The notes beneath the pieces were generated by a model, which searched no databases, was not told the DNA's origin, and saw only the letters and a list, made by a program, of their open reading frames with translations. Source: Octopus sinensis (taxonomy: Eukaryota). From it: DNA of 64,000 nucleotides. Below, piece after piece: positions 13,050 through 19,367 of the stretch (positions are counted from its first letter, which is position 1; the number at the start of each line of letters is the position of its first letter). The position numbers and the translations under genes were made by a program. The stretch lies in the NCBI RefSeq assembly GCF_006345805.1, contig NC_042997.1:120528001-120592000 (forward strand). Direction: 5' to 3'.

Positions 13050-14985
13050 CCTCTGCCATTAGAATCTACATAGTCCGATGTATATTTCTAGAGGATTTCA
13101 TTTAAAAATATCAATTGTCTTGAAAGTTAAGCGGAATTGTAATTTTCCGTCGAATTTTCCGAAATTCCCCAGCCCATCCTCTCCTAAAATACTCCCTCCC
13201 CCAGTTGTTTTATATGCGGAATATAGATGACATGACACATATTCGTAAAAAATGTTATTAAAAAATATCCATTTTCTTGAAAGTTATGATCATCCAAATT
13301 CGGGTTGGTGGAGAAATCTGTAGTTATCCCAAGTTGTCTACAATATCAAGTTCAGCCAAAACAATGTCTCTGTACAGGGAATGAGAGATAGCTACATAAA
13401 GGGAAGCATGCCAAGAAACAAACAGAATGTGTACTACAAAAGTTAGAGCATCTCACAGTGATGAAGAGAGGTACGCACGACTGACAAGGAATAGGATTAC
13501 CACTGCATAACGAAGATCAGCTGCAACAGCTCAGAGAAGCAACTTCTATGAAGCAGCTTTCAGTTATGATTCAGAAGGTCATTATACAGTTGCAATTATA
13601 GTTTCCTTTTGTAAAATGACAACTGAGTGCATACAATTTAAAGCAAAGAAGTAGTCTGGAGAGACACCTGCACTGTGCTACAGTGATGGAAAGGTTAAAC
13701 GTCCTGAAATCCCCAACCTCCAGAGCCATTGAAGAAACTAACCAACATTCCAAGCACTTCCAAAACAAAATTAGACAGTACAATGCTGTACTACAGATGA
13801 CATCATTTGGAGCCACAAGCGCTATAACTAAACCAGGATTCATGCAAACTTTCCAGATCCAAGGTCAGAGTTATATTCGGATTAGCTTTCTATTACCTCA
13901 GTCAAATGAATCAGCAAAATTCCTTCAAGTATATTTTATGGGTGATTATCAACAATAAGGTCAAGAAAGGTGCAAGAACATTTCCGGCATAAGAATGAAC
14001 ATTGTAGTTATTCTGCAAAAGATAATGCATAACGACAACATTCTGATCAGGAGCATCAAGACTGCATTTAAAACATTTCACGTGACTCTATGGATTACAA
14101 AGTAGTTATCAGATCAGACAAGAAACTATCTGGACAACATGGAGGCATGTTTAATGCGCCAACAGCAAGTGAAATAGTTGTGCTTCTGGTTGGGCAAGAA
14201 CATGAGAAGTGTGACATTGTCCTCCGGCTCAGATACAGCACACTGACAGATACAGTCCAACTACAAATGTATGTTCCGAAAAATACCACTCACAGCATTC
14301 TTCAAGTCCTGTCAAGATCATGAATTTGCTAGAAGACTGCTATACAAAGAAGTTCCACACTTTTATACCTGGTACCAAAACAAATGCAAAAGACTTGCAG
14401 TTGGAACACCTACACATCACCCGGGAATCAAGAAATCAGGCACACTTAGCAGAGTCTATGTTGCCCATCTCAACTACTCAGAGTGCTACTATGTAAGACT
14501 ATCATACCAAGGGACCCACATCATTTAAGGCCTTATTTTCGGTTGATAAAACAGTATGTAAAACATGTCGCGAAGCTTGCCATCTCAGAGGTCTTCTTGA
14601 AGATGATGCACATTGGGATGCTACTCTAACAGAGGCACAAATGTGCAAGTCTCCTATGCAGCTGAGAAACCTCTTCTCCTTCATGGAAACATGATGAGTG
14701 AGAATGTCTTCATTCCTAGGATACCTTTCATCTCAAATTATCTCCCCTTTCAGTTAAAAAGACTGCAGTTTCCTACTGAAAATGGCTTTGCAATGTTTAT
14801 CAACAAAGCACAAGGGCAATCTCTAAAGAAGGTCGGAATTAACATGATTCAGTCTTGATTCTCACATAGTGAGCTGTATGTTGGATGTTCTAGAGTTAGA
14901 AATTAAAAGAACCTCTAAATTCTCTGTGATAAACAGGGTAAGACAGAAAAAAACGGTATATTAAGAGGCACTTACATGAATAGTA
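13050..14985 (+). mobile_element. Internally deleted Helitron (RepHel remnants)
   Basis: Motifs include GETPALCYSDGK, FQNKIRQYNAVLQMTSFGA, FNAPTASEI, LLYKEVPHFYTW, CREACHLRGLLEDDAHW and the PIF1-like C-terminus IPRIP...LKRLQFP..FAMFINKAQGQSL...SHSELYVGCSRV. Confidence 0.88.
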
Positions 14986-15947: not shown

Positions 15948-16822
15948 TATTATTATTATATACATACATACACACGTGTATTATGAGTGTGTGTTTGTGT
16001 GTGTAACTTCGTATATACTCTGGACGACATGGTATAGGGTTTAATTGCAATAGGAACCTCGTAGGTATTGCCGAAACTCACCATACGTCTGTACATATGA
16101 ACAATATCATCGCGCAATTTACCATTTTACTGTCATGCAAATTTATAATTACTTTAGATTACGCCAATTTGGAGTATTGCTTCAAAATCACATTATAGAA
16201 GACGAACATTATATTTATTATTACATTATAACCCAGCTTCAATTAATTTAATCAAAGCTGATTCGGGTTTGTTATAATATGAATTAAAGCATCAAGATCT
16301 CCATTAAGTGTATTTCCCTCTGCGTCTACTGCTAACGAGTGTTTAACTATTATATTTACTATGCTTATTATAATATGAAAGCCCATATGAATAACATATG
16401 CCTGTTCAAACATACACCTATGAAACTCTGAGTTTCAGATGCCGAAGTGGAAATCCACAACACCATCTCTTCGGTTATCTGGCTATTTGAAAACGTTATG
16501 AAAAAATACCGTTAAAAATGAAGGGAAATTACTCTGTTATAACTCTGCTTTGCCTGCGTACTTATACATCGCTCGTATTTTTCGTCATAAAAATTATATA
16601 AAAATACATAAAAATATATAAAAATATATAAAATCTTCTTGGGACATAACACAGAAAGCATGTTCTATCCGTTTTCTTTAGGGGACCAAAAACGTAACAG
16701 AAATTTAGTCACATGTGGGCATGATCCGAAAAGCTCTGTCCTTGTATTTAGACATGTGGTAGGGTCTAAGCTGCTTTTCCAGATAAGCCATCTCTCCATG
16801 TCGCATAAACCGCACATTCCCT

Positions 16823-17931
16823 AACGTACATTTCGCCATCTACAAAGATGATGCCCTCACCTTAACAGCTAATACAAATGGACCAGCACAAGATCGTTTT
16901 AGGAAGGATATTATCCAGTTAATGAAACACTTCGGACTTAGTATAACTATAGACACTAACCTGACGGTTGTCAATTTCTTAGACGTTTCCTTAGATCTTA
17001 ATAATAATATTTATAAGCCTTATAGGAAGCCCAATGATAGACTAAGTTATATTAATGTAGGTTCATGCCATCCCCCTATAGTATTCAAAAATTTAGTTAA
17101 AAATATTAGTAAGAGGATTTCTAGTCTCTCATCTAATGAGGACATCTTCAATAGCGTTGCCCCAGTTTATAATAAAGCTTTAAAAGATAGTGGTTTTAGC
17201 GAAAAAATAAAATATACACCTATCACCAGCCAACAATAAGGAAAAGGAATAATAGAAATAGGAAGGTCATCTGGTTTACGCCCCCTTACTCACCCGAGGT
17301 GGCCTTCAATATAGGTAAATATTTCCTAGCACTGATAGATAGACATTTTCCAGTTAACCATGCTTATAGGAAACTCTTCAATAGACACAATTTAAAAATT
17401 AGTTTTAGTTCAACTACCAATTTTAAAAACATAATCAATCATAACATACAAAAAACACAAGAAGAAAACAGCTGTTCATGCAGGAATAAAGAATTGTGCC
17501 CGCTAAATGGAGCTTGCATGTCCAAGACCATCATATATGAAGCTACCGTAAACTCTATAACCACTAAAGACACCGTTTCGACGAAGAAATACGTGGGCCT
17601 GACAGAGGGTAATTTCAAGGCCAGGTTCAATAACCACACTTTGAGCTTTAGGCACTGGAACAAAAGAAAAGCGACACAATTATCCAATCATATTTGGTCT
17701 TTAAGAGATAAAGGTGTCGATTATAACATACAATGGAAGATTTTGGCCAGATGTAAGCCCTATACTAACGGCAGCGGAAGGTGCGGTTTATGCGACATGG
17801 AGAGATGGCTTATCTGGAAAAGCAGCTTAGACCCTACCACATGTCTAAATACAAGGACAGAGCTTTTCGGATCATGCCCACATGTGACTAAATTTCTGTT
17901 ACGTTTTTGGTCCCCTAAAGAAAACGGATAG
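16823..17931 (+). pseudogene. PLE RT (C-terminal half) plus C-terminal GIY-YIG endonuclease, with a frameshift at ~17235
   Basis: IYKDD at 16838 is in frame with VNFLDVSLDL..YKPYRKP. After the frameshift come KVIWFTPPYS, CSCRNKELCPLNGAC, IIYEA...YVGLT..FKARFNNH, CGLC and LNTRTELFGSCPH. It may belong to the Hydra clade (inference). Confidence 0.92.
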
Positions 17932-18115
17932 AACATGCTTTCTGTGTTATGTCCCAAGAAGATTTTATATATTTTTATATATTTTTATGTATTTTTATAT
18001 AATTTTTATGACGAAAAATGCGAGCGATGTATAAGTACGCAGGCAAAGCAGAGTTATAACAGAGTAATTTCCCTTCATTTTTAACGGTATTTTTTCATAA
18101 CGTTTTCAAATAGCC

Positions 18116-18178
18116 AGATAACCGAAGAGATGGTGTTGTGGATTTCCACTTCGGCATCTGAAACTCAGAGTTTTATCT
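18116..18178 (+). ncRNA. Type-I hammerhead ribozyme motif (CCGAAGA core variant) in the PLE 3' region
   Basis: Stem I agataa/ttatct, core CCGAAGA, stem II gatg/catc, (T)GAAA, stem III ACTC-a-GAGT. Predicted cleavage after GUU at 18172. Confidence 0.7.
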
Positions 18179-18276
18179 TGACTACCGAGTAATGTAACAT
18201 ATTGTATAGATAAATTTCCTCTATTTACATAATATTGAGGTCTCTTTCTTTCTTTTGTTATCTTACCGTTTTATCA

Positions 18277-18311
<35 letters not shown>

Positions 18312-18316
18312 TATAT

Positions 18317-18522
18317 ACTTATATTGTTTTACTCTTTTATTTGTTTCAGTCAATTGACAGCGGCCATGCTGGAACACGCCCTGCACTCAAACAAAGCGAC
18401 TCCACAAATTGTTCTTTGTAAGCCTAGTACTTATTCTATAGGGCTATTTTGCCGAACCGCTATGTTACGAGCACGTAAACACACATCGGTTGTCAAGTGA
18501 TAGCGAGCGGATAAGCATAGAA

Positions 18523-18553
<31 letters not shown>

Positions 18554-18635: not shown

Positions 18636-18866
18636 AAACATATATATATATATATATACATATAGGTATATATGTATATATATATGTGTATATATATAAA
18701 TACGACGGGCTTTTTTCAGTTTCCGTTTACCAAATCCGCTCAAAAGTCTTTGGTCAGGCCGAGTATATAATAGAAGTCACTTGCTCAAGGTGCCAGGCAG
18801 TGGGACTGAACCCAGAACCATGTGATTGTTAGGCAACCTACTTATCACACAGCCACTCCTAGCTCC
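18317..18866 (-). mobile_element. tRNA/CORE-like SINE with internal microsatellite
   Basis: Reverse complement of the 56741-57150 family. Confidence 0.85.
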
Positions 18867-19193: not shown

Positions 19194-19367
19194 AGGTGCA
19201 GAAGAGGCTGTGTCGTAAATAGCTTGCTAACCAACCACATGGTTCTGGGTTCAGTCCCACTGCGTAGCATCTTGTGCAAGTGTCTTCTATTATAACCTCA
19301 GGCCACCAAAGGCTTGTGAGAGGATTTCGTAGACGGAAACTGAAAGAAGCCCGTCGCATATACGTAT

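Follow-up and report, generated by a model that had tools for sequence, protein, structure and literature searches.

The 64,000-nt stretch of Octopus sinensis DNA under study (hereafter the window) holds a dead, 5′-truncated, two-armed insertion of a Penelope-like element (PLE) whose inverted arm likely lost its normal end, and a few sister insertions in the genome were likely made from RNA cut by the ribozyme of this family. A probability of about 0.6 was assigned to this reading as a whole. Positions are given in window coordinates, or as +n and −n from the predicted cut of the hammerhead motif, where 0 is 18172 and +1 is 18173. The features are collected in Table 1.

Table 1. Features of the PLE copy in the window.
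Feature	Position	Strand	Remark
Inverted arm, 5′-truncated, copy of 17781–18173	16423..16815	−	Outer boundary ambiguous, 16423 to 16420
Sense arm, 5′-truncated inside RT	16814..18277	+	Ends at (TA)n
3′ part of ORF: YKDD catalytic motif, thumb, CxCX5C linker, GIY-YIG endonuclease with CxxC and CxH	16814..17931	+	
Candidate transcription start of pLTR RNA, 64 nt before the cut	18108..18108	+	Suggested by clustered arm 5′ ends across other copies
Type I hammerhead motif, core CCGAAGA (U4C variant), extra U before GAA, palindromic stem III	18112..18183	+	Predicted cut after 18172
Family "short" end zone, first fixed 3′ end, merging into TA	18203..18215	+	
Family "tail" (about 62–75 nt), second fixed 3′ end at 18277	18216..18277	+	
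(TA)n target tract at tail end	18276..18318	.	

The first-pass annotation had described a near-identical inverted copy of about 398 bp that ends within ~1 nt of the predicted cut, and a base-by-base comparison bore this out. An inverted-repeat search of the window returned arms at 16420–16820 and 17776–18176 (401 nt, 99%), within which 16423–16815 is the reverse complement of 17781–18173 except for a single mismatch (16576/18020). Outward, the match extends to 18173, the first base beyond the predicted cut, is broken at 18174, resumes at 18175–18176 and goes no further; the outer boundary of the inverted arm is located between 18173 and 18176, which is 1–4 nt past the cut (+1 to +4). This arm stands in the place of the family's short arm, without its last ~30–40 nt and without the usual (TA)n flank, and the adjoining flank is single-copy and contains no TA tract. 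The C at 16422 is common to one other aberrant end, and a fold-back origin for it would rest on one base. The two arms meet in a short imperfect microhomology at 16814–16820. The sense arm, which had been said to run about 100 bp further to (TA)n, does extend to 18277, and it shares 99.0% identity with the natural full-length copy L141, from which it differs by 4 substitutions, a 1-nt deletion and a 10-nt deletion in an AT repeat. Its ORF is frameshifted near 17237, so that the copy is dead. In partial tandems of the family, the tail continues into the 5′ UTR. As for the surroundings, 13570–14960 contains decayed ORF pieces that resemble a Helitron helicase remnant, and pieces of abundant interspersed repeats adjoin TA tracts at 18320–18530, 18700–18860 and 19200–19345, where 18761–18860 and 19200–19299 are inverted copies at 83%. 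RT ORFs also lie beside other family copies (L144:6003–7001, L149:1908–2900 and L148:1–1113), and two of them are presumably PLE-like and one LINE-like.

Full-length copies of the family consist of a 2,590-nt unit with one ORF encoding an RT with a GIY-YIG endonuclease at the C-terminal end, and contain the motifs RWK, DKT, YKDD, CxCX5C, YVGLT, CxxC and CxH. RWK and DKT lie N-terminal to the RT, and both are present in L141, while this region is truncated away in the window copy. CxCX5C, CxxC and CxH occur at residues 394, 497 and 528 of the L141 ORF piece and also in the window ORF. The Pfam GIY-YIG match was weak (E 0.009–0.013, below the cut-off). The CCHH zinc motif of other EN+ PLEs, whose absence marks the Hydra clade, is apparently replaced by these Hydra-type motifs. 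Since RWK, DKT, CxCX5C, CxxC and CxH are features named for the Hydra clade (PMC8557442), the motifs support the earlier guess of a Hydra-clade relationship, and the sequence supports a description of the window element as a young PLE with Hydra-clade motifs. Hydra-clade PLEs, including Hydra-1_Obim (Craig et al. 2021, PMC8557442), similarly possess a short unit, a single RT plus C-terminal GIY-YIG ORF with the same motifs, (TA)n targets, and a 3′ hammerhead with a U before GAA and a palindromic stem III; the palindrome of the present family is identical in sequence to one listed there for Penelope-3_HM. Unlike these elements, our family has a tail of about 62–75 nt where theirs measures 30–40 nt, and it is distinct from Hydra-1_Obim, with an RT identity of about 59% over ~230 residues by hand count. 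The family inserts into (TA)n, to which the inverted end in the window is an exception. Between 84 and 100% of the words sampled from 17776–18277 occur in sequencing runs under nine organism labels, none of the runs listed being RNA; for this spread, a very young family across species, a recent transfer, and mislabelled or mixed samples are the alternatives.

The hammerhead motif is composed of stem I (18116–18121 paired with 18173–18178), stem II closed by G18129–C18158, a short stem III and a GUU triplet at 18170–18172. Apart from U4, replaced by C in 264 of 273 aligned copies, all core positions agree with CUGANGA / GAA / UH. The layout matches the Hydra-clade hammerheads of File S2 of PMC8557442 except at this core position 4, where U is found in all of the Hydra hammerheads in that file. 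No hammerhead was detected by an Rfam scan of the window. The monomer fold was evaluated to be 3.3 kcal/mol above the MFE, and the self-duplex of the stem III palindrome at −7.4 to −13.6 kcal/mol, of which the extended intermolecular form (−13.6 kcal/mol) ends at +1/+2; the ribozyme is predicted to require a dimer. It resembles the minimal dimeric hammerheads of metazoan PLEs (Cervera and de la Peña 2014, PMC4209133) in its type I form, its G10.1–C11.1 pair, its short palindromic stem III and its predicted dimer action, and differs from those described there by the U4C core and the extra nucleotide before G12, its activity being a prediction here. The U4C change lowers hammerhead activity in vitro, yet supports viroid infectivity (PMC3088659). 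All ribozyme positions are about equally conserved across the 273 copies, and selection on the ribozyme is unreadable from this variation because the family is too young. In L288–L290, L296, L298 and L301, copies that are otherwise intact, G, C or A replaces the cleavage nucleotide U17; these copies were picked by the search pattern and give no rate.

The arms of other copies show how the family inserts. One short and one tail arm were found in 34 of 34 inverted pairs in a sample from contig C1, and in 75 of 75 tiny head-to-head insertions (74 classified by script and one by eye; one is a tandem duplicate). Among the 34 pairs, the tail arm was longer by more than 20 nt in 9 and the short arm in 8, so that either arm can be longer, an outcome that a single fold-back could not produce. 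The arms ended within 5 nt of each other in 12 pairs, as was obtained in none of 20,000 permutations. Two RT start sites were reported for another PLE, that of an anole, for which both target strands were extended in vitro (PMC11167929). Each nicked target strand may thus prime one cDNA, one at each RNA site, and the cDNAs would run toward the RNA 5′ end and be joined by microhomology. Inner arm ends would then often mark physical RNA 5′ ends, since the cDNAs would run up to them before joining.

An internal control for this use of inner ends is provided by the junction arms just upstream of stem I, of which 51 of 66 start at −64 to −58; the set comprises all loci collected, which is a non-random sample de-duplicated by sequence and not by insertion. 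The same 5′ end was re-used inside single insertions, in several of them after a jump to about +245. Seven of the 15 arms at −64, derived from three insertions, have G for the reference C. The pile-up of arm 5′ ends at 18108–18114 (L085/L219, L207, L231/L324 and L345) often includes an extra G that is re-copied within one insertion. We infer a start site near 18108, where transcription of the pLTR likely begins; the G may be cap-templated. A third 3′ end falls within the ORF's first codons, between about +232 and +250, where L330, L334 and L339 end in TA. L324, L338, L341, L342 and L345 read through a 5′ end and resume at this third site, which produces tandem units of ~310 nt, as if the RT had jumped from the RNA 5′ end to the 3′ end, or had copied a circle.

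A ribozyme-internal 25-mer matched 2,556 places in the genome. The outer ends were sampled from 80 loci that cover the first 100 of these places, in the first part of contig C1 and with the window excluded, one row being an internal tandem duplication. They comprised 94 distinct downstream sequences, of which 49 end at +105 (tail) and 45 are short (about +31 to +43), in TA tracts. The endpoint tabulation proposed by the first-pass annotation accordingly gives ends 31–43 and 105 nt past the cut, not a cluster at the GUU site. Nearly all ribozyme-bearing arms span the cut site intact. The C at +5 (18177) was absent from 110 of the 2,556 places, mostly owing to SNPs or indels among those read; 100 of the 110 were listed, of which 30 were read from the search loci and the ambiguous remainder fetched, except plain T-run indels. 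Only about 5 of the 2,556 arms end at 0/+1, namely those in the window, at C4:135686569, at C5:98859914, at C7 (by chance, in L165), and a C27 tandem junction that is present twice. Premature TA-adjacent ends made up 64 rows from 21 places, 4 of which are internal deletions. Of the other 17, two fall at 0/+1, where about 1.1 would be expected given 31 positions, which is no enrichment, and three of the 17 have one junction in common and are possible duplicates. Four further TA-adjacent ends lie within 30 nt upstream. Most copies derive from uncut RNA, because the arms end at two fixed sites and cut-site ends are no commoner than those at nearby positions. The C27 junction (L201/L202, at C27:10006632 and 10365275) is a 61-nt tandem duplication that links the predicted cut site to the ribozyme start and may have arisen by a jump to the 5′ fragment left by cleavage; both loci lie in shared flanks and hence represent one event.

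Only the sense copy was found when the missing arm end was sought elsewhere in the window, where its presence would mean a later insertion. The window arm end is a rare outlier among the 2,556 ribozyme-bearing arms, and the simplest reading is that its normal end was probably lost in the course of insertion or later, a loss inferred by elimination because no empty-site allele was seen. Contigs of four public sequencing runs, aligned to 15990–16560, left the unique flank uncovered, a gap that carries no weight either way. This locus alone is not evidence for cleavage.

Evidence that bears on cutting was obtained from the inner ends of tiny head-to-head insertions. Two genome-wide pattern searches gave 38 and 42 junctions; apart from three that matched by chance and two that were not retrieved, all were read (75). 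They were modelled by classes of exact overlap, overlap across one mismatch, length and asymmetry, into which 54 junctions could be fitted (eight assigned by hand), while 20 of 74, including L309, were dropped for indels. Ten arms among the 54 junctions start at +1 against 2.2 expected (RR 5.5, p = 6.6 × 10⁻⁵), and this position ranked top of 51. The p value was 2.7 × 10⁻⁴ without the palindrome class and the unplaced scaffold, and 4 × 10⁻⁵ to 1 × 10⁻⁴ with a symmetry term added; across nine model variants, the RR was about 5 (p = 4 × 10⁻⁵ to 3 × 10⁻⁴) and +1 was the best of 51 positions every time. A class joining +1 to +3 through 1 nt of exact overlap was observed in 5 cases against 0.14–0.47 expected, with unrelated flanks and both resolutions. 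It is spread over two subfamilies and lies either way round with respect to the tail (4 vs 2). Among ten other 3-nt registers of this kind, the stem III palindrome has 15, one has 1 and eight have 0. Outside this class, +1 was joined bluntly to +1 at one locus and a complex locus (L309) contains two +1 ends, and the flanks of these two and of the five +1/+3 loci all differ. About seven unrelated tiny insertions therefore fit both arms ending at the cut. As they begin there with both arms, the ribozyme likely cuts a small share of the element RNA in vivo. The 3′ product of a cut by the U4C hammerhead would start at U18173, where both cDNAs would end and then be joined either bluntly or via a 3-nt register with paired termini and a central mismatch, leading to hairpin insertions of ~145 bp.

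The excess was not seen in every set of ends. In an independent one-sided set, for which 35 arms were classified by hand (one search, first 100 of its 138 rows, plus a second search), 8 arms are at +1 against 3.7–12 expected depending on parameters (P 0.03–0.96), which is no excess because stem I supplies a 6-nt microhomology starting at +1. A raw one-sided enrichment by hand count (16 arms at +1 against a mean of 3.9 at +2 to +15) lost its significance when the overlap with the two-sided set was removed and the stem I microhomology was modelled. None of the arms that include the 5′ UTR (30 of the 47 in the genome) starts at +1, where run-off at the upstream ribozyme would place it, and one starts at +2; 19 of the 30 start at or before 0, and about half are not full-length. 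More junctions fall at the stem III palindrome than anywhere else (15 of 54), and this hot spot needs an uncut template. The first-pass annotation had expected genomic evidence for an active variant ribozyme; such evidence is moderately supported by the inner arm ends of other copies, comes not from the window arm, and was not replicated in the one-sided set.

The origin that the first-pass annotation gave to the inverted arm, reverse transcription from a self-cleaved RNA end, is not supported by these counts. Priming on the 3′ end of such an RNA, with 1 nt of microhomology to the target, would account for a match ending 1 nt past the predicted cut, and a dimeric ribozyme could yield one cut and one uncut RNA. 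Three other insertions also end at 0/+1, together with the tandem junction, present twice, from the cut to the ribozyme start. Against this, such ends are about 5 in 2,556 and are not enriched among the premature TA-adjacent ones, the boundary could equally be +4 with one substitution, and the partner arm is intact across the cut site. A hammerhead cut, moreover, leaves a 2′,3′-cyclic phosphate. We consider this origin improbable, and loss of the normal end remains our reading of the window arm.

The inner ends may also be explained without any cutting in vivo, if the RT pauses at the base of the palindrome duplex formed by stem III, or of the three-way junction, and junction preferences that were not modelled add to the count at +1. 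Pausing is confounded with cutting because the extended duplex ends at +1/+2; the one-sided set without excess, the weakening U4C change (PMC3088659) and the absence of RNA-seq ends at the cut in the anole PLE (PMC11167929) are all consistent with it. However, the stem II hairpin is stronger (−14.1 kcal/mol), yet no comparable peak is observed at its foot (−13/−12 not significant), and the perfect 2-nt registers that stops at +2 or +3 would offer were seen once and never, respectively, against 5 times for the weaker register with both ends at +1. We judge this reading somewhat unlikely. Another origin for inverted arms, self-priming fold-back of one cDNA or of an antisense template (PMC3846280), would make the junctions a reflection of hairpin geometry. 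Near-symmetric junctions are indeed common (12 of 34) and palindromes are junction hot spots, but 8 of 34 pairs have a short arm that far exceeds the tail arm in length, and +1/+3 junctions face either way relative to the tail, so we regard fold-back as very improbable. Rare cutting of the element RNA remains the preferred explanation for the paired +1 ends.

Inverted arms and tails of PLEs are already known, and the first-pass annotation had named the inverted pLTRs. The inverted pLTR plus tail layout of Arkhipova et al. (2013, PMC3846280) shares with ours a head-to-head inverted 5′ copy, a tail at one end and microhomology junctions. It differs in that the window inverted arm has no normal short end, and the data on our family speak for two primed cDNAs rather than self-priming. 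In Poseidon of Anolis carolinensis, PAc (Frangieh et al. 2024, PMC11167929), the tail is likewise bounded by two internal RT start sites located 3′ of the hammerhead, both target strands are extended, and the main template is uncut RNA. The PAc ribozyme overlaps the ORF start, whereas that of our family is located in the 3′ UTR/pLTR. Protein-assisted cleavage of PAc was reported in vitro, yet no RNA-seq ends were found at the site, where our family exhibits a small genomic excess of 5′ ends. The function of PLE hammerheads was called unclear by Craig et al. (PMC8557442). No report of PLE insertion ends at a ribozyme cut was found in the literature searched, which included PMC8557442, PMC4209133, PMC3846280 and bioRxiv 10.64898/2026.07.22.740005 and outside which lay most subscription journals and Fig. 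S2 of PMC11167929, which bears on the point.

Ordinary copying of this family does not need cleavage, which would be a rare side event rather than a required step of transposition. On the basis of about seven insertions out of well over a thousand, we hold with moderate confidence that cutting by the ribozyme occurs at times. The paired inner ends may act as a genomic 5′-RACE that records a capped start 64 nt before the cut and an uncapped end at the cut; the odds are roughly even that they thereby show the U4C variant hammerhead of an endonuclease-bearing PLE to be cutting in germline cells, with the 3′ cleavage product still undergoing retrotransposition. Such paired inner arm ends offer a cheap read-out of PLE ribozyme cutting that is applicable to any assembly.
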